The notes below the pieces were generated by a model. That model saw only the letters and a list, made by a program, of their open reading frames with translations, was not told where the DNA came from and ran no database searches. 27,298 nt of DNA, taken from a virus. Taxonomy: Duplodnaviria > Caudoviricetes. Of the stretch, positions 5,006-21,391 are shown piece by piece. The position numbers and the translations under genes were made by a program. The stretch lies in IMG/VR virus record IMGVR_UViG_3300030098_001574, positions 1 through 27,298 of that record. One strand, written 5' to 3'. Position 1 is the stretch's first letter; every line of letters begins with the position of its first letter.

Positions 5006-5034
5006 TTGCTATCCTTTCTCGAATAATTTATATT
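5006..5034 (+). promoter_or_regulatory. Sigma70-like promoter giving a probably leaderless mRNA for 5041
   Basis: TTGCTA(5006-5011)-17 nt-TATATT(5029-5034); +1 would fall at or near the A of ATG 5041, which has no SD. Confidence 0.55.
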
Positions 5035-5040
5035 TTTTAT

Positions 5041-5532
5041 ATGTCTAATTACGATCAACCATTTCCTAATTATAATAGAGAAATAATCGTAACTCAACCA
5101 AATAAAAATAAACCTGCACATATTGTTAACATAAGAGAATCAAGTATTGAAACCATGTTTCATAAGAAACACATAGATGCTATACAGTATCATGCTGGTT
5201 CTATATTTAGGCGTAAGTGGGAAATGGCCCAACTTATATCTAAACCAGAAGTAAAGATAAGAGTAGATCAATCTATCAATATGTCTGTACCTGATGCTAA
5301 GCTAGATGCTATGAATGATCTTAATAGATTATACTATCAAATAGGACAGAAGTCTTATGATATACTTGAATATGTTTGTGGTTTAGGTCATAGTCTTAAA
5401 CATCTAAATAAAAAATTTAATTTCCCTAGATCTTATGGTGGTCATAGGTTCAGAGAATCTCTTGATGAAGCTGCCATATTCTATGGATTGAAAGACAAAG
5501 GTAATACTATACGTGGCAATAAGAAACGCTAA
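5041..5532 (+). CDS. Putative transcription regulator/antiterminator (DUF6456-like)
   Basis: SIETMF.KKHIDAIQYHAG..FRR.WE.AQL and C-terminal ILEYVCG.G.SL...FRESLDEAA.FYG pattern seen in alphaproteobacterial phage regulators. Confidence 0.55.
   Translation: MSNYDQPFPNYNREIIVTQPNKNKPAHIVNIRESSIETMFHKKHIDAIQYHAGSIFRRKWEMAQLISKPEVKIRVDQSINMSVPDAKLDAMNDLNRLYYQIGQKSYDILEYVCGLGHSLKHLNKKFNFPRSYGGHRFRESLDEAAIFYGLKDKGNTIRGNKKR
5069..5097 (-). promoter_or_regulatory. Sigma70-like promoter for the exonuclease/SSB block
   Basis: Minus strand TTGAGT(5097-5092)-17 nt-TATAAT(5074-5069). Confidence 0.55.
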
Positions 5533-5782
5533 ACATTTAAAGAATGTTAGGGAGTATCCCTGTTCTTATTGTCGTACTGACCAAGACATACAGGCACACC
5601 ATCTTACTCATATCAAACCTAACGGTATGTCCATGAAGTCTGATGATTGCTGGGTTGTACCTTTGTGTCCTATGTGTCACTATCATCTACATCACTACGG
5701 TGAACGTAGGTTCTGGAGAGAACGTAACCTTGAACCAGGAATCTATGCAGCAATATTATTTAAAAAAACTCTTGACAATTGA
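5513..5782 (+). CDS. DUF968/Ref-like HNH-type Zn nuclease
   Basis: PCSYC, QAHH, GMSMKSDD.WVVPLCPMCH..LH; GTG start. Confidence 0.75.
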   Translation: MAIRNAKHLKNVREYPCSYCRTDQDIQAHHLTHIKPNGMSMKSDDCWVVPLCPMCHYHLHHYGERRFWRERNLEPGIYAAILFKKTLDN

Positions 5783-5812
5783 TATTCAATAACTTACTAA
5801 TTGTGATATAAT
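5772..5812 (+). promoter_or_regulatory. Promoter upstream of 5832
   Basis: Perfect extended -10 TGaTATAAT (5804-5812); a TTGACA at 5772-5777 is too far from it to be its -35. Confidence 0.5.
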
Positions 5813-5831
5813 TGCAACAGGTGTATCAAAA

Positions 5832-6074
5832 ATGAAACAAAACAAAGACTTAAGTAAATCTGATTCGTATGCAGCTACCTTAGATTTGGACCAACTAACT
5901 CGTACAGTCAAACAAAGTATGAACTGTCCTGAGAAAGTAGCTCGTGCTATCGCTGGTTTAATATCAGCTAAGATTTATCTTGAACTTGTTTGTAAAGAGG
6001 AAGACTATCAAGAGTATCTAGTGGAACTAGAAGAACAACTTGATATGCATGATGAAGAAAAAACTATCCATTGA
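5832..6074 (+). CDS. Hypothetical acidic protein
   Basis: 80-aa ORF with AGGTG SD. Confidence 0.7.
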   Translation: MKQNKDLSKSDSYAATLDLDQLTRTVKQSMNCPEKVARAIAGLISAKIYLELVCKEEDYQEYLVELEEQLDMHDEEKTIH

Positions 6075-6405
6075 TGGCAAGAAAATAAAGGTACATTGTA
6101 CCGATATCACTATTGAACTAAGAGAACCTGAATTTGCTGATGACAATCTGACTGATTGTTATGGACATTTTCTAAAACGTAAGAACCTAATACAAATTAA
6201 CAAGGGTCTATCCGACATTGACGAGGCGAATACTACCTTACATGAACTGATGCATTGCATAGCTTGGTTGACTAACGAAACCAATGAAGGTGCATTAGCT
6301 AACGACACAGCAGAAGAACGAGTAGTCAATAACTTTACCAACTATCTTATTGGTATCTTCCGTGAAAATAAATGGCTGCTTGATTACTTCAAAGAAAAAT
6401 TATAG
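6049..6405 (+). CDS. HExxH zincin-like metallopeptidase-domain protein
   Basis: CYGHF...LIQIN....EANTTLHELMHCI...EERVV; start at ATG 6049 or 6052. Confidence 0.7.
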   Translation: MMKKKLSIDGKKIKVHCTDITIELREPEFADDNLTDCYGHFLKRKNLIQINKGLSDIDEANTTLHELMHCIAWLTNETNEGALANDTAEERVVNNFTNYLIGIFRENKWLLDYFKEKL

Positions 6406-6406
6406 C

Positions 6407-6614
6407 GAGAGAGTGCCTACAGGGGCAGTTTCGTAGATGAGATATCTCTAGACCTATACACTCTCTCCATCCATTGATCATTGGAATATTTTAACAAGGT
6501 GTGGGTACGCCAAAGCCATTAAACCTGCCTCCTAGGAGGATGTACCGAAATGGTTTCGAAGGCGTTAACTGGTCACCTCTATCCGTAGTTGATCTTGTAC
6601 TCGTCAGTACCTAC
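6407..6614. other. Structured convergent intergenic region (three stem-loops)
   Basis: GAGAGAGTG/CACTCTCTC (6407-6467); long irregular hairpin AGGTG/CACCT, ACGCC/GGCGT, AGCCATT/AATGGTT (6497-6578); GTAG..GTACT/AGTAC..CTAC (6585-6614). Confidence 0.65.
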
Positions 6615-6618
6615 AGAA

Positions 6619-7143
6619 TTACTTTTCAGGTAAAGCTATCTTGCTATAACCTAATTGTATATTTGCTTTCTTCTTTAATACATGACCAATAGTCTTGAAC
6701 AACTGTTCAGTCTCAGATCCTGCTGACCATATATAATCTTGAAGCTCTTGATGTACTGTATCAAGATGTAATAAAGCTTCACCCTCTGGTGTTTTATTAA
6801 ACTCTTTCTCAATAACATCTTGTGCTAAAGCCCTTAACTTTCTCTCTACTGCAGCATAATCATTTTCACTATACCAACTAGTCGAATCACCTTGATCTTT
6901 ATACATTTGATTAATAACATCTTGTAGTTGTTCAATCATTGTATGATAATCTTTTTCCAACTGTTTTAGTGTAGCTAACTTCTTATCAAGTTTAACTTTC
7001 TTTAAGAATTCTGGAAATAACTTCTTAGCTTGTGTTGTTTTCTTATCAGCTAATTGTAATTCGAATCCTTGTTTCTCATTACGAACAAGATCATCTACTC
7101 TTTGAAGTAAATACTCTCGTTGTCTCTCTGACATTTTACTCAT
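6619..7143 (-). CDS. Hypothetical coiled-coil protein
   Basis: 174-aa ORF with AGAAAGGA SD. Confidence 0.8.
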   Translation of the reverse strand: MSKMSERQREYLLQRVDDLVRNEKQGFELQLADKKTTQAKKLFPEFLKKVKLDKKLATLKQLEKDYHTMIEQLQDVINQMYKDQGDSTSWYSENDYAAVERKLRALAQDVIEKEFNKTPEGEALLHLDTVHQELQDYIWSAGSETEQLFKTIGHVLKKKANIQLGYSKIALPEK

Positions 7144-7324
7144 TGTTTATCCTTTCTTTCTTTATTGTTTTTATTTCGTCATACTTATCTTGAACTAAGA
7201 TATGTATAACTTTCTTTTTTGTTAGACCAGTATTCAAACAAATGTAATCTAACCAGTCTGTTATCTCCGCATGTTCTTGTGGAGTTACGTTGATGGCAAG
7301 GTATTTCCAACCATCTTTATTCAT
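7136..7324 (-). CDS. Small protein, possibly ribbon-helix-helix-like
   Basis: YLAINVT strand followed by two helices; overlapping starts and stops. Confidence 0.6.
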   Translation of the reverse strand: MNKDGWKYLAINVTPQEHAEITDWLDYICLNTGLTKKKVIHILVQDKYDEIKTIKKERINNE

Positions 7325-7643
7325 TGATAGGTTCTCTATCTACGAGAGCTGCCTTACCAATTATAGTTGGATCCATACTCATTCTTTGTTCTTGATCCAA
7401 CCATTCTTGAAAGTATTTAGTAGCCAATGCGTTATACTCTTGACCACTAAGTCTACCTTCTTCATCAATATACAAATCATAATTCTTATCATTGTATCTT
7501 GCGCCTGTGATCTCAATCATCTCACAAGATAAATGTTTGTACATACCGTTGTCACCTTTAAACTCTGGTCCATCAGTACCTTCAACAATTACATCGTAAG
7601 GATTTTTATCTACAGGTATTATTGTTACTTTAAATTTATTCAT
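7317..7643 (-). CDS. DUF3846-like protein
   Basis: Start MNKFKV at 7643 (GAAAGGA SD); MIEI....DLYIDEEGRL...YN.LAT...IIGKAALV pattern. Confidence 0.7.
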   Translation of the reverse strand: MNKFKVTIIPVDKNPYDVIVEGTDGPEFKGDNGMYKHLSCEMIEITGARYNDKNYDLYIDEEGRLSGQEYNALATKYFQEWLDQEQRMSMDPTIIGKAALVDREPINE

Positions 7644-7661
7644 ATGTTTTCCTTTCATTGG

Positions 7662-7880
7662 TGGGGGAGAGTGAGGTCTAACTGGGTGGTAAGATTCTCT
7701 CCCCCATAAAAGGCGACAGTTGAAGAGGTCGCAACTACTGCCGCCCATTACGGTGACAACTATAAAGAAGGACTAAATAATTGTCACCTATCAAGATGGG
7801 AATAACAAAACCCATCAAGAATATTATATAGATGCAGTGAGAAGATAGCACTCATTAACGGTACTAGGTCTCCCACTGCA
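7662..7880 (-). other. Array of five non-identical stem-loops
   Basis: Stems at 7662-7706, 7712-7745, 7752-7788, 7795-7816 and 7833-7880; A-C oppositions on + read as G-U on -. Confidence 0.7.
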
Positions 7881-7896
7881 CCAACCATGGTATATG

Positions 7897-8142
7897 TTAT
7901 ATGTACTTTGGTTTAGCTACAACACTAAACGCAACTTTAGGATCATCAACATAGTTCTGTGCTTCTTCTTTACTAATCATTTTATTGATTTCAATCATCA
8001 ATGAATTAGTAACTTGAATAGGCATATAACCTTTGATCCCAGAGTGTACAGGTTTACCAGTCGAAGTATCCCATTCATTGACAGGATAAGCTTTGATGTA
8101 AACTTCTTGTTCCATATCTGGATTTATTACTGGATTGCTCAT
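7897..8142 (-). CDS. Hypothetical protein
   Basis: 81 aa with AGAAAGGAG SD. Confidence 0.75.
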   Translation of the reverse strand: MSNPVINPDMEQEVYIKAYPVNEWDTSTGKPVHSGIKGYMPIQVTNSLMIEINKMISKEEAQNYVDDPKVAFSVVAKPKYI

Positions 8143-8160
8143 TGTTTTTCTCCTTTCTTT

Positions 8161-8652
8161 TTATCCTATTTTAAAACCTTGATCTGATTCCTCACAGAAG
8201 TCAGAAAATTCTTTTAACAATTCTAGATCCATTGGATAACTTGCATCAGAATCATATTTTATTTTATGATACATTACCTCCCATATTTCTTTTTCTGGAG
8301 GAGACAAGTCATTACCACAACTTGCACCTTGTTCTGTTGTCCAAGCATCTAATGCTTTCATTAATATTTCTTCTGCTTTAACTTCTTTATTTCTATTTGT
8401 TTCATAGACATCGCACATCTCTTTCAATGTACCATCATCTAATAATGATTGTAATCTGGTAGCTAACATAATACTTTTAGCTCCATCAATCTTTACAAAA
8501 TCATTGTAATTACCACGCTTGATTTCTTCAGCATCAAGTATGTCATCACAAAATTGAGTAACTAGTTTCCAGATAGGTCTCCAACCCCAGACATTAGATC
8601 TGAAGTATGTCTCACCTTTCTGTTTATTTAGTCCATATAAATCGAATCCCAT
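8161..8652 (-). CDS. Conserved phage hypothetical protein
   Basis: Start MGFDLYG at 8652 (GGAGGT SD); YFRSNVWGWRPIW and C-terminal EFSDFCEES..GFKIG. Confidence 0.8.
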   Translation of the reverse strand: MGFDLYGLNKQKGETYFRSNVWGWRPIWKLVTQFCDDILDAEEIKRGNYNDFVKIDGAKSIMLATRLQSLLDDGTLKEMCDVYETNRNKEVKAEEILMKALDAWTTEQGASCGNDLSPPEKEIWEVMYHKIKYDSDASYPMDLELLKEFSDFCEESDQGFKIG

Positions 8653-8752
8653 ATTACCTCCTTTAGAATCCATTGTACCACCAGTCTCTATGAGACCAGA
8701 GGAAGTTATTAATTAAGTAGGCTAGTTGTTGCCATAAGTTTCTACTATAGTT

Positions 8753-8938
8753 TCAGCCAGGCAACAGACTGAATATTGTAAATGCAAATACTCCAAGTCC
8801 TATAAGTCCCCATGGTAATCGTTTATTATTGTTTGCTTCTTTGTGTCGTAACTTAAAGATTACTTCTTCTTGGTCTTTAATTTGTTTGTCACGCCACCTG
8901 ATTTCTTGTTTCCATAATTGTTTTTCTTCTTGATCCAT
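8753..8938 (-). CDS. Small coiled-coil protein with C-terminal TM helix
   Basis: LPWGLIGLGVFAFTIFSLL; AAGGAG SD. Confidence 0.7.
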   Translation of the reverse strand: MDQEEKQLWKQEIRWRDKQIKDQEEVIFKLRHKEANNNKRLPWGLIGLGVFAFTIFSLLPG

Positions 8939-9165
8939 TACTGTATCTCCTTCGTGATTACATTTGTAAACATTCTTTCATCTTGTAATTCAAACTGAAA
9001 CACCAATCTTAATTCTTCTTTTGTAAAGTATTTATTTACAACCGGTATCTCAATTAACCAGTCTATCTCATCTTCTACATCAACAGCTGGTTCTGTATTC
9101 TTTACACGTTGTATTGATTCAGCTATCATTAGTTCAGCATCATCATAATTCAAACTGCTTATCAT
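8938..9165 (-). CDS. Hypothetical acidic protein
   Basis: 75 aa, coupled to neighbours. Confidence 0.7.
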   Translation of the reverse strand: MISSLNYDDAELMIAESIQRVKNTEPAVDVEDEIDWLIEIPVVNKYFTKEELRLVFQFELQDERMFTNVITKEIQ

Positions 9166-9320
9166 TGTTTATCCTTAAACTGTGATTCAAACATTTCAAA
9201 CTCTGATTGATAATCTTGTACTATCAAGTTGATTTTTGCTAGTGCAGCTGTGTATGTAATTTCTTGATCATAGTACCTATCAACAATCAAAGATATCTCA
9301 TCCATCCATTCATTTGGCAT
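9162..9320 (-). CDS. Small acidic protein (52 aa), not in track
   Basis: MPNEWMDEISLIVDRYYDQEITYTAALAKINLIVQDYQSEFEMFESQFKDKQ*; GAGGA SD; ATGA coupling. Confidence 0.65.
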   Translation of the reverse strand: MPNEWMDEISLIVDRYYDQEITYTAALAKINLIVQDYQSEFEMFESQFKDKQ

Positions 9321-9486
9321 TCTCTAGTTCCTCTCTATTTGTTATTGCTTGGTTTCTTAACCTATCAGTATGACCCCAATAACATATGATACATAAGTTA
9401 TTACCATCTTTCTTGATAGGATCCATTATGAAACCAAAGTGTTTAGCTTCTGTCTCCCAGTTGCAATGTCTGCATTTAAGTGTCAT
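9310..9486 (-). CDS. Small Zn-finger protein (58 aa), not in track
   Basis: MTLKCRHC...LCIICYWGH...; AGAAAGGAT SD. Confidence 0.65.
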   Translation of the reverse strand: MTLKCRHCNWETEAKHFGFIMDPIKKDGNNLCIICYWGHTDRLRNQAITNREELENAK

Positions 9487-9498
9487 GACTTATCCTTT

Positions 9499-9726
9499 CT
9501 AGTTTACACTAATAGTATATCTATTAGCCATTGGTTGAGTACCAAACTGTTTGAGCCACCAGTCTATCCACATATCTTCAAGCTGATCTCTCATCATTCT
9601 TGCTTTTTCAAGATCATATGTTTGAGCTACAGGATTCCTGTTACCCTCACATAAGATATAATATACTGGATCTTTCATCCACTTGGTTTGTTTCTTATCA
9701 ACCTTTAACTCAGTTACCTTATTCAT
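9499..9726 (-). CDS. Hypothetical protein
   Basis: 75 aa; overlaps the upstream stop. Confidence 0.65.
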   Translation of the reverse strand: MNKVTELKVDKKQTKWMKDPVYYILCEGNRNPVAQTYDLEKARMMRDQLEDMWIDWWLKQFGTQPMANRYTISVN

Positions 9727-9919
9727 CTGTAAACTTTCTGTGTTGATTTATTAAATTGTCTAATGCTAATTTAACAAGTTCACTTTTTTTACAGTTAAGT
9801 TCTCTTGCTATCTCTACTAACTTAGCATTCGTTTGTTTAGTTATACCTATCGAATGCCAGTTAGATACTGGTTTTTTTTCGATATTACTATCTATTAATT
9901 TTTCAAAGTCTATCTTCAT
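9719..9919 (-). CDS. Ribbon-helix-helix (CopG/Arc-like) DNA-binding protein
   Basis: HSIGITKQTNAKLVEIARELNCKKSELVKLALDNL. Confidence 0.7.
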   Translation of the reverse strand: MKIDFEKLIDSNIEKKPVSNWHSIGITKQTNAKLVEIARELNCKKSELVKLALDNLINQHRKFTDE

Positions 9920-9922
9920 CGC

Positions 9923-10150
9923 TCACTCCATGTTTTCGTTCGCTCTACCATAATGTCCTAATAGTAGTTTAGCTTTGTTAATAAATTGATTTGCAGTTTT
10001 ACTATCACCAATGTCTATCATATGCTGCGCATCAGATAGTATTGCCATGATATATAGATAGCGAAACTTACCATACATTTCTCCAGCTTCAGCATATGCT
10101 CTGTAGATTTGTTGTTTAGTTTCACCATACATTTCTTTTTGTGAAGTCAT
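9923..10150 (-). CDS. Hypothetical protein
   Basis: 75 aa with GAAAGGA SD. Confidence 0.75.
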   Translation of the reverse strand: MTSQKEMYGETKQQIYRAYAEAGEMYGKFRYLYIMAILSDAQHMIDIGDSKTANQFINKAKLLLGHYGRANENME

Positions 10151-10171
10151 ATTATTCCTTTCATTAATTAA

Positions 10172-10219
10172 GTATGGGTAGGATTTAAACCTTCTTCTAT
10201 TTCCAGTATCCTACCCACA
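10172..10219 (-). other. Intergenic stem-loop (possible processing or stability element)
   Basis: TGGGTAGGAT/ATCCTACCCA perfect 10-bp stem with a 23-nt loop; flanking pair is G-U on the minus strand. Confidence 0.65.
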
Positions 10220-10224
10220 CCTAT

Positions 10225-10482
10225 TTATTTTATGGTTTCAGAAGTTAATGTCACGCTTCCTTGATGGAAGTTTTCATTAACTGTAGACCATATAGCTACA
10301 TCCAACACTCTACCTTCACTATCAGTTATATATCCTGATAGCATTGGAGCGTTTTCATTTTCAGATTGTACTGACCAAAGAACTATCTTGTTCTCCTCTG
10401 TCGGTACATACTGATTAGTCGTTTGCTCTGCATAAGCACAACTGCCTATCAACATTGCAAACATAACAACTATAGTCTTCAT
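10225..10482 (-). CDS. Signal-peptide protein with a DUF736-like mature region
   Basis: MKTIVVMFAMLIGSCAYA|EQ; NENAPMLSGYI...LDVAIWS. Confidence 0.7.
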   Translation of the reverse strand: MKTIVVMFAMLIGSCAYAEQTTNQYVPTEENKIVLWSVQSENENAPMLSGYITDSEGRVLDVAIWSTVNENFHQGSVTLTSETIK

Positions 10483-10504
10483 AGATCTATCCTTTCTGTT
10501 GTTG

Positions 10505-10657
10505 TTAATCTTTTACAATCTTAGTGTGTATCTCATCAATCTGTAATCTTAACACATCTATCTCAGATGCACACCAATTAGATTCACTAAACTCATATTG
10601 TATATACAAGTTAACTAGCATTGTTATTGCTATTACTACGAGAATCAAATGATTCAT
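10505..10657 (-). CDS. Small membrane-anchored protein (50 aa), not in track
   Basis: MNHLILVVIAITMLVNLYIQYEFSESNWCASEIDVLRLQIDEIHTKIVKD*. Confidence 0.6.
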   Translation of the reverse strand: MNHLILVVIAITMLVNLYIQYEFSESNWCASEIDVLRLQIDEIHTKIVKD

Positions 10658-10994
10658 AAATCTTATCATAATCATATCCCATTATTGCTTCACAAAAGAA
10701 TAGATTTGCTTTGTCTGTATCGTCATCAACAATACAATCCCATGTGAAGATTTCCTTTCTATCATGTAAAAGAATGTAAGAGTCATCAAACTCCCAGACT
10801 TCCCAACCATTCTCTTGGATTATTAATTGTTCCATTCCTATTGTATTACATAGCACTGCTTGATCTGGATCCACTATGTTATCGCAGTTGTATCCTATCC
10901 AACCTGGACCAGCATAATGTTCTGACTCTGCGTATGCTATCTTCTCCAATCCCATTAGCATTAGTATTGAAGTTATTATTATCATTGCTTTCAT
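10611..10994 (-). CDS. Exported acidic Cys-containing protein
   Basis: Signal-like N-terminus ending IAYA|ES; four Cys; D/E-rich. Confidence 0.7.
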   Translation of the reverse strand: MKAMIIITSILMLMGLEKIAYAESEHYAGPGWIGYNCDNIVDPDQAVLCNTIGMEQLIIQENGWEVWEFDDSYILLHDRKEIFTWDCIVDDDTDKANLFFCEAIMGYDYDKIYESFDSRSNSNNNAS

Positions 10995-11008
10995 ATGTTT
11001 CCTTTCTG

Positions 11009-11350
11009 TTAGTAATGACAGTTAGACCAATCAGGTACACACTTACTATTTAGTTTATATAAGTTACAATCAACAAAGCCATTGTTCATAGTACCAACTA
11101 ATGTTGTTATAATACCATGATCTACTAAGGCTTGTTCAATACCTTCATTCTCTGACCAATTCTTTACTGCCATTAAAGGTATTGTTGGATCTATATCTAC
11201 ATTGGCTGATGCTTCCATATATGCCAAACCTTCATCATCATACAATCGTAATGATATAAGATTTGTATCTTTATATCTACCAAATTCACAATGTAATCTT
11301 TCTCCTTGAAACATTATATCATGTTCCATATATTCTATTTGTGCTTTCAT
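11009..11350 (-). CDS. DUF4313-like protein
   Basis: GRY..TNLISLRL....AYMEASAN...VKNWSENEGIEQALVDHGII....NGFV pattern; AAGGAGG SD. Confidence 0.65.
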   Translation of the reverse strand: MKAQIEYMEHDIMFQGERLHCEFGRYKDTNLISLRLYDDEGLAYMEASANVDIDPTIPLMAVKNWSENEGIEQALVDHGIITTLVGTMNNGFVDCNLYKLNSKCVPDWSNCHY

Positions 11351-11386
11351 ATATCCTCCTTATTCTGCACTCTATCTTTTACCCCC

Positions 11387-11409
11387 TCGGCGAGGCGAAG
11401 CCGAGCCGA
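11387..11409 (+). other. GC-rich hairpin with GAA triloop and tandem G-A mismatch
   Basis: CGGC-GA-GGC-GAA-GCC-GA-GCCG (11388-11408). Confidence 0.65.
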
Positions 11410-11450
11410 ATTTTGTTCTGGGTTTGTTCTGTTTTTATTTTCGCATATAG

Positions 11451-11485
11451 AAAAAAACCCCCAAGTCCAGAAGGACTCAGGGGTT
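11451..11485 (-). terminator. Rho-independent terminator
   Basis: Minus strand AACCCCTGAGTCC-TTCT-GGACTTGGGGG followed by seven T, 13 nt after the stop at 11499. Confidence 0.9.
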
Positions 11486-11498
11486 AATTTATGTTTTG

Positions 11499-11993
11499 TT
11501 ATTTATCTAAAGAGATTGGTTTCAAACCTTGAGCTTGACGAAGTTTATTGAACTCTTCAACAGAAAGCTCACGCTTAGCTGAATTGTCCAAATCTTTCCA
11601 ATCAATTCGATAACCTGAAGCTGTAATGCAAGTAGGAAATGCATTAGCATAAGCTTCAAGAGTCTCAGCAATTACTGTGAATTTAGCTTCATTCTCAGTG
11701 TGCCAAGTCGCAGAACCAGATTTCTTATAGTTCTCGATAGCCAACTTCTGAGACTCATGTGCCTTTTGTTTATAAGAATCAATCTTAGAATCCAAGGTTC
11801 TCACCACAGCAGTAGTAATGTTGTTAGCAAGATATACCCATTCAGATAAATCTTCCTTACAAGACTTACTTTTCAATGCCTTCTTAAAGGATTCCTCAAT
11901 TTTATCTAATGCATCAATTAAGAGTTGAGAGTTAGAAACAATCTCAATTTCTAAGTCTGATACAGATAGTTTATTGTTATTTTTATTACTCAT
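11499..11993 (-). CDS. First gene of the minus-strand block, hypothetical helical protein
   Basis: Start MSNKN at 11993 with GAAAGGA SD; has its own terminator. Confidence 0.8.
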   Translation of the reverse strand: MSNKNNNKLSVSDLEIEIVSNSQLLIDALDKIEESFKKALKSKSCKEDLSEWVYLANNITTAVVRTLDSKIDSYKQKAHESQKLAIENYKKSGSATWHTENEAKFTVIAETLEAYANAFPTCITASGYRIDWKDLDNSAKRELSVEEFNKLRQAQGLKPISLDK

Positions 11994-12028
11994 GATTAAT
12001 TTTCCTTTCAATGAGTTGATTTAAGAAA

Positions 12029-12850
12029 TACGATAAATTGTAATAATTAAATATAATAATTAAAAAATATCGTAACCATTTCAAAGTACACACCTCAGCG
12101 TTTGCGTAGGGAATCTTTTAGGATTAGCTCACATCAAGTAAAAAGAAATGTGAGTAATCCGTATGAATCGTTTACGATTCGTTAAAGATGACTGAAGCAA
12201 ACCAGTCACACAGTCCTGCTTAGACTGTGGGAACTCGAAGGGTCGAAAAAATCGAGGCACTTGTGCCGAGAAAAGAGATGCAATCCTTGCGAGGTGATGT
12301 ACAATGGTTATCGATATAAGCCCCACGCAGTGGCTTCGAACACCCATGAGGGGTCGTTGCACTTCATATCGCATGTACGATGGGGCAAGTTGTCTGCACC
12401 TTTAGGTGCGACCACTTGATACCATTGTGCGAGACTGAAGTTTTCGCAACGACTGTGATGCAGAAAGTATGATAGGAACATCACTGTCGATTATTGGGCC
12501 TTTCAAATCACCATAAAGAATGGGTGCGACAGCACCTCCGTAAGGAAAGATGCCAACCAACCTATTGAATATATATTGTTACGATTAAGAAGACGGAGTA
12601 GGTTAAGAACAAGTGAAGCATTCGTCACGCTTAGTCGAATGCGTAACGGTACACGAAGTGTATGTTCGTACATACGTAGTCGTAAAGTCGCCGATAGGCG
12701 TTCGTCCCACTACGTGGGAGAGAAGAGAAGAAGAGAAAAGAGAACGAAAACAAGAGAGTAATTCAAGACGGAAGGGGGTGCATGGGGGATTCCCCCTGCT
12801 AGGTCTGGGCAAAGCCCAGCCGACTGCAGTTCGGAGACTGCCTTGAAGTG
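12029..12850 (+). other. Large non-coding multi-hairpin element (structured ssDNA or ncRNA)
   Basis: GC-enriched, no credible ORF, more than 15 stems including long-range pairing of 12067-12096 with 12291-12317. Confidence 0.75.
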
Positions 12851-12874
12851 AGGAACACGTATGGTTGCTGCGAA

Positions 12875-13010
12875 GGGGGGTTTTTAGAAAACGATAGGGT
12901 GATAACAAAATGTATGGGGTCTAAGAGACAAGGGGGGGTTTGTTAAAACAAAGTCGTACTTGACACATATACACTAATGAGAATATATTGAAACGGTGGG
13001 GGGTTTGTTA
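12875..13010 (+). repeat. Three GGGGGGTTT(G)TTA direct repeats
   Basis: 12875-12886, 12933-12945 and 12998-13010; the last two are identical 13-mers. Confidence 0.7.
12960..12989 (+). promoter_or_regulatory. Sigma70-like promoter of the packaging/structural operon
   Basis: TTGACA(12960-12965)-18 nt-TATATT(12984-12989). Confidence 0.6.
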
Positions 13011-13035
13011 CGATCCTTTCTGTACCTCCCACGTT
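12992..13035 (+). other. Leader stem-loop with anti-SD loop
   Basis: GTGGGGGGT/ACCTCCCAC stem (one G-U); loop TTGTTACGATCCTTTCTGT. Confidence 0.65.
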
Positions 13036-13151
13036 AATCTATCATATTTACAAATTCTGAAGGGTTTGGTGTTTTAGAGTACCCTACCATTCAAATATCA
13101 ATCAACTAGCCTAAATCGAGAGATATGGGCATTTAACAAGGAGAATAAACT

Positions 13152-13253
13152 ATGCCAATGGTAAAAGGTAAGAAGTATCCATATACAAAAAAAGGTATGG
13201 CTGCTGCAAAGAAAGCTAAGAAGAAAATGAAAAGTAAAAAGGGTATGAAGTAG
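13152..13253 (+). CDS. Lys-rich micro-protein (33 aa), not in track
   Basis: AAGGAG SD; MPMVKGKKYPYTKKGMAAAKKAKKKMKSKKGMK*. Confidence 0.75.
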   Translation: MPMVKGKKYPYTKKGMAAAKKAKKKMKSKKGMK

Positions 13254-13393
13254 TGGCATCGCCAAAACCTAAGAATAAAGCCCTATACGCTAGAGTAAAG
13301 GCAGAAGCAAAGAAGAAGTTCAAGGTATATCCTAGTGCTTATGCTAACGCATGGCTTGTCAAAACGTACAAGAAACGTGGTGGCAAGTACTAA
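13253..13393 (+). CDS. Basic protein, DUF5872-like N-terminal half (46 aa), not in track
   Basis: GTG start; PKNKALYARVKAEAKKKFKVYPSAYANAWLVKTYKKRGGKY*. Confidence 0.75.
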   Translation: MASPKPKNKALYARVKAEAKKKFKVYPSAYANAWLVKTYKKRGGKY

Positions 13394-13629
13394 TGGCATA
13401 CAAGGGTGGACTACGCAAGTGGTTCAAAGAGGATTGGCGTGACGTCAAGACTGGAAAAAAATGTGGTCGCAGCGGAAAGAAAGACAAGGGCAGACCTTAT
13501 CCTGCATGTCGACCAAAGAAAGTAGCTAGTCGTATATCGAAGAGCGAAGCATCAAAGAAGACTGGACCCAAAAGAGTTAAGTGGTCTGTCACAGCATCTG
13601 GTAAAAGGAGAAAGAAATCAAATGGCTAA
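13393..13629 (+). CDS. Basic protein, DUF5872-like C-terminal half
   Basis: Start MAYKGGLRKWFKEDW at 13393 (TAATG); CGRS...YPACRP. Confidence 0.75.
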   Translation: MAYKGGLRKWFKEDWRDVKTGKKCGRSGKKDKGRPYPACRPKKVASRISKSEASKKTGPKRVKWSVTASGKRRKKSNG

Positions 13630-13888
13630 GTCACCTGCATGGCAAAGAAAAGAAGGTAAGAACCCAAGTGGGGGTTTGAATGCTAAAGGTCGTGCTAGTT
13701 ATAACAGAGGAAGAACTAAGACAGGGAAGAAGCGTAACCTGAAAGCACCAAGCAAAAAGGTAGGCAACCCAAGACGAGCATCCTTCTGCGCCAGAATGAA
13801 AGGAATGAAAAAGAAACTAACGAGTGCAAAGACAGCTCGTGATCCAAACTCTCGTATTAATAAATCATTGAGAGCATGGAATTGTTAA
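13622..13888 (+). CDS. Basic phage protein (DUF6321-like)
   Basis: AWQRKEGKNPSGGLNAKGRASY...RRASFCARM...SRINKSLRAWNC. Confidence 0.75.
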   Translation: MAKSPAWQRKEGKNPSGGLNAKGRASYNRGRTKTGKKRNLKAPSKKVGNPRRASFCARMKGMKKKLTSAKTARDPNSRINKSLRAWNC

Positions 13889-13897
13889 GGAGATATT

Positions 13898-14557
13898 ATG
13901 GTTAAATATAACAAAGATTTTCAAGATGTACCGTCAGCATTGACGTTCTTAACGTCAGACGGTGTAACAGGAGCAAACATACTCAACGGTAAGATTAATG
14001 CATCTGGATCTAAATTTGATAAGATGGATGCAACAGAAAGCAATCTAATGAAAGCTATGGACACTACAGGGTATGATCTGCCTAAGACAAACATTAATGA
14101 TTATAAAAAGGTAGCATCTAATGAGCCATCATGGTCAGATTATTTATTAGGTAGGTTTGGATTTAGACAAGGTACTGGTTTTTCTACTATGGATAGATAT
14201 AGATCTCTTTATGAAAGAAGAAACTCTTTGAAAGGAAAAGAAAAAGAAGAATTTATTAAATTAGATAATTTGTTAAAAACTAGTAGTGGTCCTAAAATTA
14301 GAAACAAGAAAACACAGGAACAACCGAACTATGGAGATATGATTCCTAGAATACCAGAAGGTTATAAAGAACCTACTCCTATGAAAAAAGAAAATATTCC
14401 ATTTAATCCAATCTTTAGACCAGGCATGGATCCAATGGGTTTACCTAATAGAAGACCTAACATGATGCCAAACAATATGGTACAGAATAGAGGCAACAAT
14501 AAAACACTTGTAAAACTTGCTACAGTAAATAGATTATTTCCAGGATTAATATCATGA
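13898..14557 (+). CDS. Hypothetical protein with Pro/Met/Asn-rich C-terminus
   Basis: 219 aa with AAGGAG SD. Confidence 0.8.
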   Translation: MVKYNKDFQDVPSALTFLTSDGVTGANILNGKINASGSKFDKMDATESNLMKAMDTTGYDLPKTNINDYKKVASNEPSWSDYLLGRFGFRQGTGFSTMDRYRSLYERRNSLKGKEKEEFIKLDNLLKTSSGPKIRNKKTQEQPNYGDMIPRIPEGYKEPTPMKKENIPFNPIFRPGMDPMGLPNRRPNMMPNNMVQNRGNNKTLVKLATVNRLFPGLIS

Positions 14558-14838
14558 GTCATGGAGGAAAAAGAAAAGGTGCAGGAAGACCAAAAGGAAT
14601 TCAAGCAGGTACAAAAGCAGAACGCTTAGCTGCTGAACTAGGTAAAGGTCAGACCACACCATTGAAGTATATGTTGAATATGTTGAACAACCCACAAGTA
14701 TCTATTGAAAAAAAGATGTGGGCAGCAAAAGAAGCTGCACCGTTTGTTCATTCTAAACTTGCATCAATTAATAAAACTATTATGGGTGATGAAGATAAAC
14801 CAGTTGCAGTAACCATAGGATGGCGTAAAAAGAAATAA
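14554..14838 (+). CDS. terS: Putative terminase small subunit
   Basis: GGKRKGAGRPKG N-terminus, AAKEAAPFVHSKL; directly upstream of TerL. Confidence 0.65.
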   Translation: MSHGGKRKGAGRPKGIQAGTKAERLAAELGKGQTTPLKYMLNMLNNPQVSIEKKMWAAKEAAPFVHSKLASINKTIMGDEDKPVAVTIGWRKKK

Positions 14839-16097
14839 TGAACATAGAGATTCCGTACGAACCTCGACCATTACAAGAAAAGATTCATAACGAATTAAAA
14901 CGATTCAATGTTTTAGTTTGTCATAGAAGGTTTGGCAAAACAGTATTAGCAGTAAATCATTTGATAATGACTTGCTGTGAAAAACCTAATGCAAGATTGG
15001 CGTATATAGCACCAACATATCGCCAGGGTAAGGCAGTCGCTTACGACTATTTGAAACAATACACAGAACCCTTAATGAAACTTGGTGGCAAACGTCATGA
15101 AACAGAACTCAAAGTAGATCTGTGGAACGGATCAAGATTACAAATCTTTGGAGCTGATAACCCAGATGCTTTGAGGGGATTAGGCTTTGATGGAGTTGTC
15201 TTAGATGAATTTGCTTTGATGTCTCCTAGAACTTGGACTGAGGTTGTACGACCAGCTATATCAGATAAACTTGGATATGTTATATTTATTGGAACACCAA
15301 TGGGTCATAATCATTTCTGGGAAGTATATGATCTAGCTAAAAGGCGTGGTGGAGAATGGTACGCTGAATTATACAGAGCTTCTGAGACTGAAGTTATATC
15401 TCAAGAAGAACTTGAAGAAGCTGCTGCTACTATGCCAGAAGATCAATTTGAACAAGAGTTTGAAGTTAGTTTCCAAGCTGCAGTATCAGGTGCATACTTT
15501 GGAAAACAAATACAGAAAGCTGAAAGAGAAAATAGAATAACTGATGTTGACTATGATCCTAACAATGAAGTTGAAACATGGTGGGATTTAGGTATCGGTG
15601 ATTCTACAGCAATATGGTTTGCACAAAGAGCAGGTAATGAAATACACCTGATTGATTATTTAGAAACGTCTGGTGAATCATTAGCTTACTACATAGGGCA
15701 GCTAAAAGAAAAAGGTTATAACTACGGTAGGCATATTGCACCACACGATATTACAACTAGAGAACTTGGTACAGGTAAATCTAGATTAGAAGTAGCAAGG
15801 GAACTTGGAATTGACTTTGAAGTTTGTCCTAGATTAGAAATAGATCATGGTATAGAAGCTGTGAGAAATAATTTAGACAAATGTTATTTTGATAAGAACA
15901 GATGTAAATATGGTATTGATTGTTTGCGACAGTACCGAAAACAATTTGATGACAGAATGCAAACATTTAAAAACAAACCTCTACATGATTGGGCATCACA
16001 CGGAGCTGATGCATTTCGTTATGGATGTTCTGTTGATGGTTCAACAAGAACTGATTGGGAAAGACCAATGAGTGTAGATATAAGATATGTAGTTTAA
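14838..16097 (+). CDS. terL: Terminase large subunit
   Basis: Walker A HRRFGKT, Walker B VVLDE, IGTPMG, nuclease motifs WDLG and HGADAFRY. Confidence 0.95.
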   Translation: MNIEIPYEPRPLQEKIHNELKRFNVLVCHRRFGKTVLAVNHLIMTCCEKPNARLAYIAPTYRQGKAVAYDYLKQYTEPLMKLGGKRHETELKVDLWNGSRLQIFGADNPDALRGLGFDGVVLDEFALMSPRTWTEVVRPAISDKLGYVIFIGTPMGHNHFWEVYDLAKRRGGEWYAELYRASETEVISQEELEEAAATMPEDQFEQEFEVSFQAAVSGAYFGKQIQKAERENRITDVDYDPNNEVETWWDLGIGDSTAIWFAQRAGNEIHLIDYLETSGESLAYYIGQLKEKGYNYGRHIAPHDITTRELGTGKSRLEVARELGIDFEVCPRLEIDHGIEAVRNNLDKCYFDKNRCKYGIDCLRQYRKQFDDRMQTFKNKPLHDWASHGADAFRYGCSVDGSTRTDWERPMSVDIRYVV

Positions 16098-16105
16098 GGA
16101 ATATT

Positions 16106-18358
16106 ATGGCAAAAGGAAGACCGTTAACGGATCACGAAATACAGGGAATAGTAGCTAGTGAACTAAGAAGTGCATTTGGTTATTATGAAACTGATTTAGT
16201 AAACTCAAGAAAGAAAGCTACTGAATATTATTTCGGTGAATCATTTGGCAATGAAGTAGAAGGAAGATCACAAGTTGTTTCAACTGATGTTGCTGATACA
16301 GTAGAATCAATACTACCTGCTTTACTTAGAATATTTACTGCTAGTGATAATATTGTAAAAGTAGATCCAGTTACTCAAGAAGATGTAGGTGTAGCCAAAC
16401 AAGCTAGTGATTATCTAAATCATATATTCAATAAAGATAATGATGGGTTCACTACATTGTATGCAATGTTTAAAGATGCACTGCTGCATAAAAATGGAAT
16501 AGTAAAAGTTTATTGGGATACATCAGAAAGAACAAAACAAGAAACTTATGAAAAACTTTCTGAAGCTGAATTCACAATGCTTGTTGAAGAAGATGGTGTA
16601 GAAGTAAAAGAACATACTGAGTACAACGATGAAACATTTGAAGAACAGAAAAAGAACATACAAGAACAATTAGATAATGCTCAAGATCAAGTATCTGCAA
16701 ATCTTATGGAGCAACAACTAAATGAAATAAATACTCCAAAGTTACATGATGTAGTTATTATTCGTACAGAAACATTTGGTAAAGTAAAAATGGAAGCTGT
16801 ACCACCTGAAGAATTTTTAATTGAAAGACGAGCAAAGAATTTAGAAGAGGCAAACTTCTTATGTCATAGAACTACAAAGACAAGAAGTGAATTAGTTGAA
16901 ATGGGTTTTGATTATGACCTTGTTTATTCTTTACCAAAAGAACACGATCAAAGTTATAATGAAGAAAAGACTGTAAGACATAGAAACATTGATAACGATC
17001 TTAGCAATGAAACTGGAGATGAATCTACAGATGAAATAGTAATCTGTGAATCCTATATTAAAATGGATCAAGATGGTGACGGTATTGCAGAGATGAGAAA
17101 GATAACTTCATCTGGTGATGATAGCTATACAATACTTGATAATGTTGTTGTAGATGCACAACCTTTCTGTTCTGTTACTCCAATCGTAGTACCACATAGA
17201 TTCTATGGTAGGTCAGTATCAGAATTAGTAGAAGATATTCAATTAATTAAATCTACTGTTATGCGTCAGATACTAGACAATATGTATCTAACTAATAATA
17301 ACAGAGTAGCTGTAATGGATGGTCAAGTTAATCTAGAAGATCTATTAACTAATCGCCCAGGCGGAGTTGTAAGAACTAAAGCAGCTCCAGGACAAGTTAT
17401 GATGCCAATGACTACTCAAACAATTAACAATCAAGCATTTCCACTACTTGAATATTTAGATACTGTTAAAGAAAACAGAAGCGGTATTACTAAATACAAT
17501 CAAGGTATGGATACTGATTCTCTTAATAAAACTGCATCAGGTATAAATACTATTCTTTCACAATCACAAATGAGAATAGAATTGATTGCAAGAATATTTG
17601 CTGAGACTGGTGTTAAAGATTTATTCAAGAAGATATTTGAATTAGTTGTAAAATATCAAGATAAAGAACGTATAGTTAAAATTAGAAATAACTTTGTACC
17701 AATGAATCCTATGGAGTGGAGAGATCGTTGTAATGTAAGTATTCAAGTTGGTTTAGGAACTGGATCAAGAGATCAACAGTTATCTATTTTAAATCAAATC
17801 TTAAGACAACAAATAGATGGTATAAGATTACAAGGTTCACCACATGGACCAATAGTAAATATGAATAATATTTATAATACATTGAAAAAGATTGTAGAGA
17901 ATGCAGGTCTTAAAGATGTTGATTCTTACTTTACTGATCCTATAGTTGGTATGCGTCAAATGCCGCCAAGAGGACAGAAACCTCCAACAGAATTTGAAAC
18001 TGTATCAAGAATACAAACGCAGCAGAAAGCAGCTGAAGCTCAGATGCAATATGAAAATAGAATGCGTGAGATTGAACTTAGATATCAGAAGATGATGTTA
18101 GACTTCGAAGGTAAAGTAAAAGAACTAGAATTGAAATACGAAGCAGATATTGATGAGAAAGCAATTAAGAGAGAAGCATTGAAAATGAAAGGTATTTCAG
18201 AAAGCAATAAACAAATGCTTGACGCTGCAACTAAAAATCTGTTACAACCTGAAGGTATACCAAAAGGACTAACACCACAACCAAAACAAGGTAGCGATAC
18301 CTTTATAGAAATAGATGTCGGATCTGATAAAGGAACAAACAAGGGGCCAAAGGGCTAA
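16106..18358 (+). CDS. Portal protein
   Basis: Follows TerL; EGRSQVVS.DV.DTVE, DALL.KNG.VKVYW, PH.FYGRS, C-terminal coiled coil; start MAKGR at 16106. Confidence 0.9.
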   Translation: MAKGRPLTDHEIQGIVASELRSAFGYYETDLVNSRKKATEYYFGESFGNEVEGRSQVVSTDVADTVESILPALLRIFTASDNIVKVDPVTQEDVGVAKQASDYLNHIFNKDNDGFTTLYAMFKDALLHKNGIVKVYWDTSERTKQETYEKLSEAEFTMLVEEDGVEVKEHTEYNDETFEEQKKNIQEQLDNAQDQVSANLMEQQLNEINTPKLHDVVIIRTETFGKVKMEAVPPEEFLIERRAKNLEEANFLCHRTTKTRSELVEMGFDYDLVYSLPKEHDQSYNEEKTVRHRNIDNDLSNETGDESTDEIVICESYIKMDQDGDGIAEMRKITSSGDDSYTILDNVVVDAQPFCSVTPIVVPHRFYGRSVSELVEDIQLIKSTVMRQILDNMYLTNNNRVAVMDGQVNLEDLLTNRPGGVVRTKAAPGQVMMPMTTQTINNQAFPLLEYLDTVKENRSGITKYNQGMDTDSLNKTASGINTILSQSQMRIELIARIFAETGVKDLFKKIFELVVKYQDKERIVKIRNNFVPMNPMEWRDRCNVSIQVGLGTGSRDQQLSILNQILRQQIDGIRLQGSPHGPIVNMNNIYNTLKKIVENAGLKDVDSYFTDPIVGMRQMPPRGQKPPTEFETVSRIQTQQKAAEAQMQYENRMREIELRYQKMMLDFEGKVKELELKYEADIDEKAIKREALKMKGISESNKQMLDAATKNLLQPEGIPKGLTPQPKQGSDTFIEIDVGSDKGTNKGPKG

Positions 18359-18578
18359 AGATATTCTAGAGGATGAACTCTTTAAAGAGTCTTTACAGAC
18401 TTTGAAAGATTCATATTCTAATGCGATATTTCAAACAGGACCAAATGATGAACTGGCAAGGACAAAGATCTACCTTGCTTATCAAATTTTAGGTAAGTTT
18501 GAAAATCATTTCCGTTCCGTTATGGAAACAGGAATACTTGCTAGTAAACAATTAGAAGAGCTACGCAAGAAAAAATAG
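18315..18578 (+). CDS. Conserved small protein between portal and scaffold
   Basis: RGQRAKDILEDELFKE...RTKIYLAYQ...ETGILA pattern. Confidence 0.75.
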   Translation: MSDLIKEQTRGQRAKDILEDELFKESLQTLKDSYSNAIFQTGPNDELARTKIYLAYQILGKFENHFRSVMETGILASKQLEELRKKK

Positions 18579-18632
18579 CACCAACCGTTCAGGAGTGCTT
18601 TTAACAACACCAACCAAACAAAGGAGTGTATT

Positions 18633-19622
18633 ATGGCTGATGAAGCTATGAATGTTCTCGATGCTAGTAAAACTATTGTAGGTCTTATGAACAATAGTGC
18701 AACTGAATCAGAACCAACTAATGAAGCAGCACCTCAAGAATCTAATGAGGCACCTGCAGAAGAAACTGTAAACCCTAGCGATGTACCTTATGCGGACATT
18801 GAAAGAGATGCAGATGCAACTACAGAAACTGTAGAAGCACAAGATGAGGCTCAAGAAGATATTCAAAATGAAAGTTCAGAGGAACCTACCTACCAAGTCA
18901 AAGTACAAGGTCAAACAATGGAGGTCACCCTTGATGAACTACTTCAGGGATACCAACGAGAAGCTGATTATACAAGAAGTAAACAAGATTTATCCTTAGA
19001 GAAATCAAGGCTTGATCAAACACTTCAAAGATCTCAATCTGAGATAAATCAAAAACTCGCTAAGCTGAATGATTTAAACTCTGCAGCACAGGCGCAACTG
19101 CAACAAGAGTATGCAAATATAGACTTTGAAAGACTGTACGAAGACGATCCTGTTGAAGCTAGTAAACTAGAACACAAGATGCGTAAGAGAGCAGATAACC
19201 TTCAAAGGATTCATTACGAAACTCAACAAGCTCAACAACAAGAACTTGCTAGATTCGTACAAGACGAACAATCTAAAATGCTTACACTCATACCAGAATT
19301 TAATGACCCTAATAAAGCTAGTGCATTAAGAAATGATATGAAAGGCTATCTACAAAGACAAGGCTTTAAAGATCAAGAGATAAATAGTATCTATGATTCA
19401 AGACAAGTTATGTTGATTAGAGATGCTTTAGCATACGATAAGATTAGACGTGCAAATCCAAAGGTTAAAAAGAAAGTCGTTAATGCTCCTAAAGTAGTTA
19501 AGTCTGGCACACCTAAAACTGCTGCAGAACAAAATGCACAGCTTAGAAAAGACAAACTAAATCGTCTCAAAAAATCTGGTGGCGTAAGAGATGCTGCCAA
19601 AGTTTTTAGAGATTTTCTTTAA
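18633..19622 (+). CDS. Capsid scaffolding protein
   Basis: Acidic N-terminus, VKVQG...VTLDELLQGY...DYTRSKQ, basic C-terminus; precedes the MCP. Confidence 0.85.
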   Translation: MADEAMNVLDASKTIVGLMNNSATESEPTNEAAPQESNEAPAEETVNPSDVPYADIERDADATTETVEAQDEAQEDIQNESSEEPTYQVKVQGQTMEVTLDELLQGYQREADYTRSKQDLSLEKSRLDQTLQRSQSEINQKLAKLNDLNSAAQAQLQQEYANIDFERLYEDDPVEASKLEHKMRKRADNLQRIHYETQQAQQQELARFVQDEQSKMLTLIPEFNDPNKASALRNDMKGYLQRQGFKDQEINSIYDSRQVMLIRDALAYDKIRRANPKVKKKVVNAPKVVKSGTPKTAAEQNAQLRKDKLNRLKKSGGVRDAAKVFRDFL

Positions 19623-19638
19623 TTAATAGGAGGCCCAA

Positions 19639-20586
19639 ATGGCACAACCAAGTAACTTGTACGATACGTACGACACTACTGGTATTAGGGAAGATTTAGT
19701 AGATGTGATTTATAACATATCTCCTGAAGAAACCCCTATACTGTCAGCGATTCCAAGAACCGCTGCAAAATCTACGAAGCATGAATGGCAACTAGATGCA
19801 TTGGCTGCACCTGCTGCAAACGCAGTTATCGAAGGTGACGATGCAACTATTGATGCTATGACTGCTACAACTAGAGCATTTAACTTTACTCAGATTTCTG
19901 ACAAAGTGATTGCACTTTCTGGAACTCAATCAGCTGTTGACGCTGCTGGTAGAGCTGATGAAATGGCTTATCAAATTGCTAAGAAGTCTAAAGAGTTAAA
20001 GAAAGATATGGAATTTGCCCTTATCAAAGGACAGGTTCAAGCTGCTGGTGATGCATCAAACGCTAGAAAATTAGGATCAATCCCTACATGGATTAAAACT
20101 AATGGTGATGCAGGATCTGGTGGAGCTTTATCTACTGGCTCTGGTACAGACTTACCTAACTCTGGTACTGACAGAGACCTTACTGAAACAATTCTTAAAA
20201 CAGTTGTTAAAGAGGTTTATGAGTCAGGCGGAGAAATGGATATGTTAGTTGTTCCACCATCTGTGAAACAAACTATATCTGGTTTCAACGCTAATACTAC
20301 TAGATTTGGACAAGCAGAAGCTAAAGTTGAGTATGCAGCTATTGATGTTTACTCATCAGACTTTGGTGATTTGCAAGTTGTTCCAAACAGAGTTATGGCA
20401 ACAACAAGTGAAAGCAATGCATTCTTACTACAAAGAGACATGGCTGCAGTAGCTTACCTAAGAGACTTTTCAGTAACTGATCTTGCAAAGACTGGTGACT
20501 CTGAGAAGAAACAACTCTTAGCTGAGTACACACTTGAAATGAGAAACGAAGCCGCACACGGTATTCTTCTCGACATCAACCAATAA
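19639..20586 (+). CDS. Major capsid protein (DUF5309/SU10-like)
   Basis: GIREDL.DVIYNISPEETP, HEWQ.D.L, NFTQI, ELKKDMEFALI, LAKTGD, EYTLE; AGGAGG SD. Confidence 0.92.
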   Translation: MAQPSNLYDTYDTTGIREDLVDVIYNISPEETPILSAIPRTAAKSTKHEWQLDALAAPAANAVIEGDDATIDAMTATTRAFNFTQISDKVIALSGTQSAVDAAGRADEMAYQIAKKSKELKKDMEFALIKGQVQAAGDASNARKLGSIPTWIKTNGDAGSGGALSTGSGTDLPNSGTDRDLTETILKTVVKEVYESGGEMDMLVVPPSVKQTISGFNANTTRFGQAEAKVEYAAIDVYSSDFGDLQVVPNRVMATTSESNAFLLQRDMAAVAYLRDFSVTDLAKTGDSEKKQLLAEYTLEMRNEAAHGILLDINQ

Positions 20587-20593
20587 TCTAAGT

Positions 20594-20616
20594 GAGGGAG
20601 CTTCGGCTCCCTCTTT
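20594..20616 (+). terminator. Hairpin / leaky terminator after the MCP
   Basis: GAGGGAGC-TTCG-GCTCCCTC (cUUCGg loop) followed by only TTT. Confidence 0.75.
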
Positions 20617-20637
20617 AGAATCATTCTAAGGAACATT

Positions 20638-20913: not shown

Positions 20914-20915
20914 CC

Positions 20916-21215: not shown

Positions 21216-21391
21216 TCTCTACTAGGTTTTCACATAGAGGACAAGATAGATATAGAGACAGAAGAACAGATACACCTAATGATAATATTAAATTAGAAGA
21301 TGGTACTTATCTGTTAATACAAGCAGGTGATAATATAAAAATTGAACAGGCAGTTGGTACTGTATTTAGTGGCAGACCAATACCTAACTAA
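21212..21391 (+). CDS. Small protein (59 aa), not in track
   Basis: MISTRFSHRGQ...IKLEDGTYLLIQAGDNIKIE...; ATGA and TAATG coupling. Confidence 0.7.
   Translation: MISTRFSHRGQDRYRDRRTDTPNDNIKLEDGTYLLIQAGDNIKIEQAVGTVFSGRPIPN

Follow-up and report, generated by a model that had tools for sequence, protein, structure and literature searches.

A conserved non-coding region with DNA-type hairpins as a candidate replication-start region in a clade of HTVC010P/HTVC106P-like marine podophages

A folded non-coding island lies between the diverging early and late genes of an uncultured marine podophage, and we propose, at a probability of roughly 0.45, that it represents an enlarged version of a non-coding region found throughout the clade, at which host priming starts replication. 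The island occupies positions 12029-12850 of the window, i.e., the whole 27,298-nt stretch of DNA analyzed here. Because DNA-stable loop types are present on both strands, the element likely folds as single-stranded DNA (ssDNA), and when all of the DNA-based readings are taken together, we consider a function at the DNA level quite probable.

The window is a partial genome (CheckV completeness 71%) of an HTVC010P/HTVC106P-like phage, with a portal, capsid and adaptor of the SU10 type and a terminase that is 49.8% identical to that of Pelagibacter phage HTVC106P. A marine origin was recorded for 20 of the 20 sequencing runs that contain the stretch. A TerL search of GTDB genomes for a host found no relative. 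The early genes are small and run leftward from 11993, while the late genes run rightward from 13152, behind a putative late promoter on the plus strand (TTGACA-18-TATATT, 12960-12989; sigma-70 match 11/12) that is followed by a hairpin. A search for tRNA and tmRNA genes found none, and blastn of positions 12000-13150 against 50,697 phage records gave no match. Open reading frames within the island (at most 101 aa) were not counted as genes, since its alleles contain indels and other sequences take its place in relatives. The GC-skew minimum falls at the island; since this minimum tracks gene orientation, it gives no independent support for an origin.

Several features of the surrounding genes were recorded. 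The late operon opens with four tiny Lys/Arg-rich ORFs (13152-13888; 33, 46, 92 and 88 aa) that match DUF6321 and, weakly, DUF5872; their order and number vary among close relatives, which suggests that they encode interchangeable DNA-binding virion proteins. Directly 3’ of the late promoter, an extra gene is present in L006 (4243-4929), L022 (3331-4008) and L074, the L006 copy matching a 2OG-Fe(II) oxygenase, and the position behind the promoter is held by a different gene of 180-192 aa in L008, L009, L021 and L025. Inside the early block, a plus-strand island (5041-6405) encodes a DUF6456 protein (match below cut-off), which we take to be Q-antiterminator-like, together with an HNH/DUF968 protein and a metalloprotease-like protein. 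A late protein encoded at 25870-27135 has a weak match to a Hint module, below cut-off.

The first-pass annotation had described the island as a GC-enriched, multi-hairpin fold enclosed by a long-range stem, and this description was confirmed in most respects. The 13 hairpins that it listed were all found where it had placed them, and the long-range stem was present at 12067-12099/12289-12317, with sampled pairs at P=0.66-1.0 under RNA or DNA parameters and on either strand. When both strands of 12029-12850 were folded and compared with dinucleotide shuffles (20 per setting), none of the 20 reached the native energy. For the plus strand, the energy was -275.1 with RNA parameters (z -8.3) and -143.4 with DNA parameters (z -7.9); for the minus strand, it was -260.2 (z -7.5) and -133.3 (z -9.7), respectively. 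The signal is uneven, in that domain I (12060-12320) carries most of it (z ~-7 to -8.5), followed by domain II (z -3 to -6) and domains III-IV (z -1 to -3.5); because a coding control scored alike (z -1.5 to -3.3), domains III-IV are unexceptional on energy alone. The GC content of the island was 0.41-0.46, compared with 0.30-0.41 in the remaining bins. The wording that the island is almost entirely base-pairable proved too strong: the pairing is real, but it involves 57-66% of the bases in the minimum free energy structures, and a purine run at 12720-12757 is mostly unpaired. Furthermore, the conserved context of the element extends to ~13030, beyond the end at 12850 that had been assigned originally.

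We compared the place of the island among related genomes, referred to here as the slot. An identity of at least 89% was found for 26 of 44 terminase loci, and 13 of the 26 span the whole slot; the 19 slots analyzed below consist of these 13 loci, four loci of another search, L080 and the window, with the duplicate alleles L001, L079, L081 and L082 excluded. The ~800-nt island itself is present in six other contigs and occurs as three type A alleles (window/L079/L082, L001/L080 and L026/L081). Differences among alleles often preserve the fold: in the stem at 12209-12229 a T-A pair is exchanged for C-G with the fold kept, an A-T pair becomes C-G in allele L026 in the stem below a cGCAg loop near 12323, and the stem at 12121-12160 is rewritten between alleles, the outer stem having one paired change. 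Formal covariation among the three alleles is thin, with both sides changed in 3 of 251 pairs and an unfavourable covariation term of +4.9.

In other close relatives, the slot is filled by shorter, unrelated or partly related folded modules around a conserved core. Many of these other slot types are significantly folded (z ~+0.7 to -7.8, with eight shuffles each). Comparison with L004, in which the terminase is 100% identical to that of the window but the left module and the first early gene (gene 1) differ, indicates that the slot is an exchangeable cassette, for which at least four types of module were distinguished. The link between slot type and gene 1 is not strict, the type B slot of L004 being accompanied by another gene. 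Type B slots (L003, L004, L006 and L022) have a bulged hairpin with clear compensatory changes, 3’ of a conserved CCCTGCGAGGG hairpin. Type C slots (L014, L074, L075 and L077) have a long covarying stem-loop that starts at the ribosome-binding site of gene 1, with neither an AT-rich spacer nor GNA hairpins, and may represent a separate regulatory solution.

The available text of PMC13037366 describes GNA/GNNA mini-hairpins as far more stable in DNA than in RNA, resistant to nucleases and poorly bound by SSB, and places them at the G4 origin, RSF1010 ssiA and N4 promoters. A loop census of 11 representative slots against 300 shuffles showed that cGNAg triloops were enriched ~20-fold on both strands (6 vs 0.3 on the plus strand and 5 vs 0.2 on the minus strand) and that GNYA tetraloops were enriched on the plus strand (6 vs 1.0), whereas RNA-type loops on that strand were at chance (GNRA, 1 vs 1.1; UNCG, 1 vs 0.4). 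In the element of the window alone, two plus-strand cGNAg triloops were counted, compared with 0.05 in shuffles. Over all 19 slots, 20 of 35 distinct triloop stems carry a GNA loop (11 plus, 9 minus; shuffled fraction, 0.118), a count whose significance a binomial p would overstate because the slots are related and not independent. Of 11 GNA hairpins with a stem of at least 5 bp in genomes G001-G003 and the window, 10 map to the slot or to the spacer that follows gene 1, G003 and the window being near-identical in the slot region. Thus, the suggestion that the island is selected for DNA-type folding was supported by the enrichment of cGNAg and GNYA loops across relatives. However, restriction of this selection to the plus strand was not supported: GNA loops show equal enrichment on the minus strand, which also carries the hairpin with the best conservation, and helix mismatches show no strand bias (G.T vs A.C, 12 vs 10).

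The conserved core consists, in order, of a minus-strand hairpin, the purine run, a 13-bp anchor, plus-strand hairpins and G-boxes. The anchor, TAAWTCAAGACGG (12759-12771, plus strand; variants TAAAT..TCGG), was found in 19 of 19 slots and is single-copy in G001, G002, G003 and the window. To its left, a minus-strand GNA-triloop hairpin (12705-12719 in the window, 48 bp from the anchor, key loop 12711-12713) recurs at -48 to -50 in 14 of the 19 slots when a stem of at least 4 bp is required and in 15 when at least 3 bp is required. Its loop is GAA or GTA, its stem has several sequences, and its closing pair is C-G in 9 slots and G-C in 5. The four type C slots have neither this hairpin nor GNA loops. 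The intervening purine run of the plus strand (12720-12757; a pyrimidine tract on the minus strand) has a purine fraction of 0.77-1.0 in 15 of the 19 slots and 0.6-0.7 in the four type C slots. To the right of the anchor lies a variable cluster of plus-strand hairpins (12772-12845), which includes a cGNAg hairpin with a varying middle base (GGA, GAA or GTA) in 7 of the 19 slots and cAAAg in some others; the loop is cAAAg in the window, cGAAg in L026 and cGGAg, cGAAg or cGTAg in other slot types. Downstream of these hairpins come plus-strand G-boxes (at 12875, 12932 and 12998, within 12875-13032) and the late promoter.

A profile of the core gave no match in distant TerL loci or in the isolates HTVC106P, Greip, Lederberg, Venkman and MW202481. 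Scanning for the anchor pattern returned 18 stretches, of which 6 were known loci and 12 were dropped as chance coding matches; among the matches listed, these lie inside genes. Likewise, a TACAAT..GATATA pattern returned 44 stretches, comprising one known locus and 43 that were attributed to chance (L138, on inspection, proved to be coding), and a late-promoter pattern returned 15 stretches, all on contigs already in the comparison set. In the distant isolates L083, L084, L085, L086 and L047, TACCC or C-run motifs upstream of the terminase genes replace the G-boxes of the clade.

Leftward of the island lies gene 1 (11499-11993, minus strand), which encodes a 164-aa, all-helical protein of a clade-specific family. 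This protein had no fold match and no atlas match and is therefore not assignable as the binding partner of the element. In the spacer after gene 1, a strong terminator-like hairpin on the minus strand (11456-11485) was observed, which could make gene 1 a separate transcription unit. The same spacer holds a plus-strand satellite motif, GCGAGGCGNAGCCGAG (11390-11405), with a GNA mini-hairpin; the motif occurs in the window, L004, L006 and L026 (three times), and in allele L026 it lies inside the element. Between gene 1 and the first stem is an AT-rich spacer (12000-12066) with overlapping -10-like hexamers, TATAAT on the plus strand (12052-12057) and TATATT on the minus strand (12055-12050), to which a promoter role may be assigned on the basis of these motifs. 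In domain I (12067-12317), the long-range stem closes a multi-hairpin junction, and a plus-strand -10-like TACAAT on its 3’ arm (12300-12305) faces a 4-5 nt bulge of the 5’ arm. Domain II (12318-12522) consists of nested stems, the first of which is the cGCAg triloop hairpin. In domain III (12523-12704), short plus-strand hairpins have cGACAg, cGTAAg, cGAAg and cGATAg loops, and an ATTGAWT-like motif near 12564 is conserved.

We suggest that replication could start in this region as follows. The duplex would be opened in one of two ways: the purine-rich end of a plus-strand transcript would form an R-loop over the purine run, or a phage nuclease would act together with an SSB-like protein. Both opened strands would then form mini-hairpins that resist SSB, and those flanking the anchor on opposite strands would serve as priming or loading signals, one per template strand, in the manner of ssiA/ssiB or the G4 origin. 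Domain I would refold, its stem rebuilding the -10 box facing the bulged template, and host RNA polymerase might prime there or transcribe toward the left, into the early genes, as at Frpo. The core comprises one anchor per genome, with a GNA hairpin of the minus strand at a set distance on its left and hairpins mostly of the plus strand on its right. No polymerase, primase or helicase family was detected among 52 ORFs of the window or 30 ORFs of relatives, and neither DnaB_C nor PolA was found in any of 5 records, two of which are 100%-complete relatives. No RepB’-like primase, initiator or HUH protein was detected in these ORFs; therefore, the partner would be a host enzyme, with a DnaG, PriA or RNA polymerase route possible. 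These missing enzymes agree with the host dependence stated for HTVC010P-type phages, which have no RNA or DNA polymerase of their own according to the available text of PMC8477408. Products of the early block include a Cas4-like nuclease (4277-5005; weak PHROG match) and a conserved, acidic-tailed protein (3745-4263), which might conceivably be an SSB-like OB-fold protein, although its OB-fold matches all had E >0.001 and its structural model has a pLDDT of 53. Counted against a replication start are the type C slots (4 of 19), which are devoid of the -49 hairpin and GNA loops, the thin formal covariation among type A alleles, and RNA contigs inside the element that may reflect transcription.

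The same core would fit a genome terminus equally well, and the two readings need not exclude each other. If a genome end or terminal repeat lay at the core, terminase would recognize or cut the anchor and G-boxes, a nuclease-resistant GNA hairpin would end the 3’ end of each strand, protecting it or self-priming duplication of the repeat, and the left modules would be the first DNA into the cell. The position of the single-copy core, at the early/late divergence and ~1.8 kb upstream of a putative small terminase gene, is in keeping with this role, as is its polarity (minus left, plus right), which sets each hairpin near a 3’ end if the repeat spans the anchor. The T7 ‘hairpin end’ would be a precedent, although our literature search did not retrieve it. 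One contig, L007, has its start 61 bp to the left of the anchor, immediately beyond the minus-strand hairpin, but other contig ends near the slot are scattered; moreover, the material consists of assembled contigs only, and the one DNA contig that is unbroken over 10500-14725 is neutral on a repeat. In the available text of PMC10504331, a direct terminal repeat of 125 bp is described for 4 of 9 circular Skadi assemblies, with no position given, and PMC13037366 reports the nuclease resistance of mini-hairpins. Given also that the core was not found in the five isolates named above, we regard a terminus as a rather doubtful explanation.

Two further readings concern the left domains. Domains I-III might constitute a ~700-nt structured RNA of the plus strand, running from ~12064 (behind TATAAT) to near the anchor; it could serve as a decoy for RNA polymerase in the manner of 6S RNA or as a primer precursor resembling ColE1 RNA II, and DNA-type hairpins would be limited to the core. 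The element does contain three of the four near-full-length RNA contigs of at least 140 nt that map to 5000-24900 in two metatranscriptomes of one study (12225-12366, 12427-12593 and 12604-12762; the fourth is in the capsid gene). These contigs have a depth of 2, and they are a weak hint of transcription, because the runs were selected through their match to this stretch and the contigs are unstranded; stretches left uncovered in these runs were not read as silent. A plus-strand -10-like hexamer lies 7-9 nt ahead of the first stem in the window, L008 and L012, the plus strand is ~15 kcal/mol more stable than the minus strand as RNA, and the c(GCAA)g loop of allele L080 is also compatible with GNRA; a -10 box that faces a bulge in a stem would be 6S-like if RNA. 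However, GNRA and UNCG are not enriched, the plus strand has no G.T excess, and cGNAg triloops also occur within domains II-III, where one is retained via a compensatory change. No Rfam family matched the element: the window gave only two chance miRNA matches outside it (E 0.37-0.78), and 10 related loci gave none. No terminator was predicted on the plus strand, and overall we judge a structured RNA to be unlikely. Less likely still is that the element is solely an ssDNA promoter of the Frpo kind, from which the early operon would be expressed while the plus strand is transiently single-stranded, with no role in replication or packaging. The promoter geometry that had been suggested at first was recovered in slot types A and D and is not evident in types B or C. 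A long stem adjoins the AT-rich spacer in the three type A alleles, L008, L012 and L021 and sets TACAAT or TAATAT on the 3’ arm facing a bulge, bubble or side hairpin, even though the arm sequences differ; TG precedes the -10-like box in three type D slots, and a polymerase templated by the 5’ arm would run into gene 1. On the other hand, the window fold rebuilds no -35 box and has no TG at -15/-14, a promoter leaves the minus-strand hairpin and the anchor unexplained, and no route to ssDNA on entry is known for a tailed dsDNA phage.

A replication start of this kind would have relatives among known ssDNA signals. In RSF1010, ssiA and ssiB lie on opposite strands, and opposite-strand hairpins are likewise found in the element, together with a stable DNA mini-hairpin at a fixed place. 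GNA/GNNA mini-hairpins of RSF1010 ssiA/ssiB and the G4 complementary-strand origin also lie in a non-coding control region (PMC13037366, available text). In contrast to these systems, the element belongs to a tailed dsDNA phage with no detected RepB’-like primase, helicase or initiator, it includes large exchangeable folded modules, and priming is here a proposal. Frpo and the class 1-3 ssDNA promoters of F/IncI1 plasmids are described in the available text of PMC12672017 as a large template-strand stem-loop directly upstream of the first early operon; the element shares such a stem-loop upstream of the first genes and a -10-like box on the opposite arm, a likeness of fold geometry. It differs in that the box was seen in types A and D, with TG in D only and no clear -35, and in that there is no conjugative ssDNA stage. 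Hairpin promoters of the N4 virion RNA polymerase have cGGAg/cGAAg triloops on 5-6 bp stems (PMC13037366, available text), as in the element, but no 3,500-aa virion polymerase is present, the largest ORF seen in a complete relative being 1,261 aa with no family match. The early/late spacers of HTVC010P-type pelagiphages share the genome plan, with no polymerases and host-dependent replication (PMC8477408, available text), whereas the isolate spacers examined (TerL identity 44-50%) are AT-rich and have neither the core nor GNA hairpins. The large phage RNAs GOLLD and ROOL and 6S RNA have a similar length, a multi-domain fold and a stem with a bubble; the element is set apart from them by the absence of an Rfam match, by its DNA-type loops and by its replacement with unrelated modules in phages whose terminases are 89-100% identical. 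Altogether, parts of the element resemble known ssDNA signals, and the whole does not classify as an RSF1010 ssi, an N4 promoter or a member of an Rfam family. Our literature search, with the supplementary tables of PMC10690425 (candidate viral RNAs) outside its scope, found no published description of the element.

A more far-reaching possibility, which we put forward as a long shot, is that a lineage of tailed dsDNA phages starts infection on plasmid-style ssDNA signals: the genome end would be opened or resected, a fold-back promoter active only as ssDNA would form for the early operon, paired hairpins on opposite strands would prime host-run replication, and the entire cassette would be swapped between phages like an incompatibility module. 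The literature searched held no description of how replication starts, or how ends are completed, in HTVC010P-type phages. This clade offers a candidate site that is single-copy, covarying and marked by DNA-type loops, and that is testable with synthetic ssDNA. If the site does prime or transcribe as ssDNA, single-strand signals of the plasmid type would extend to tailed dsDNA phages.
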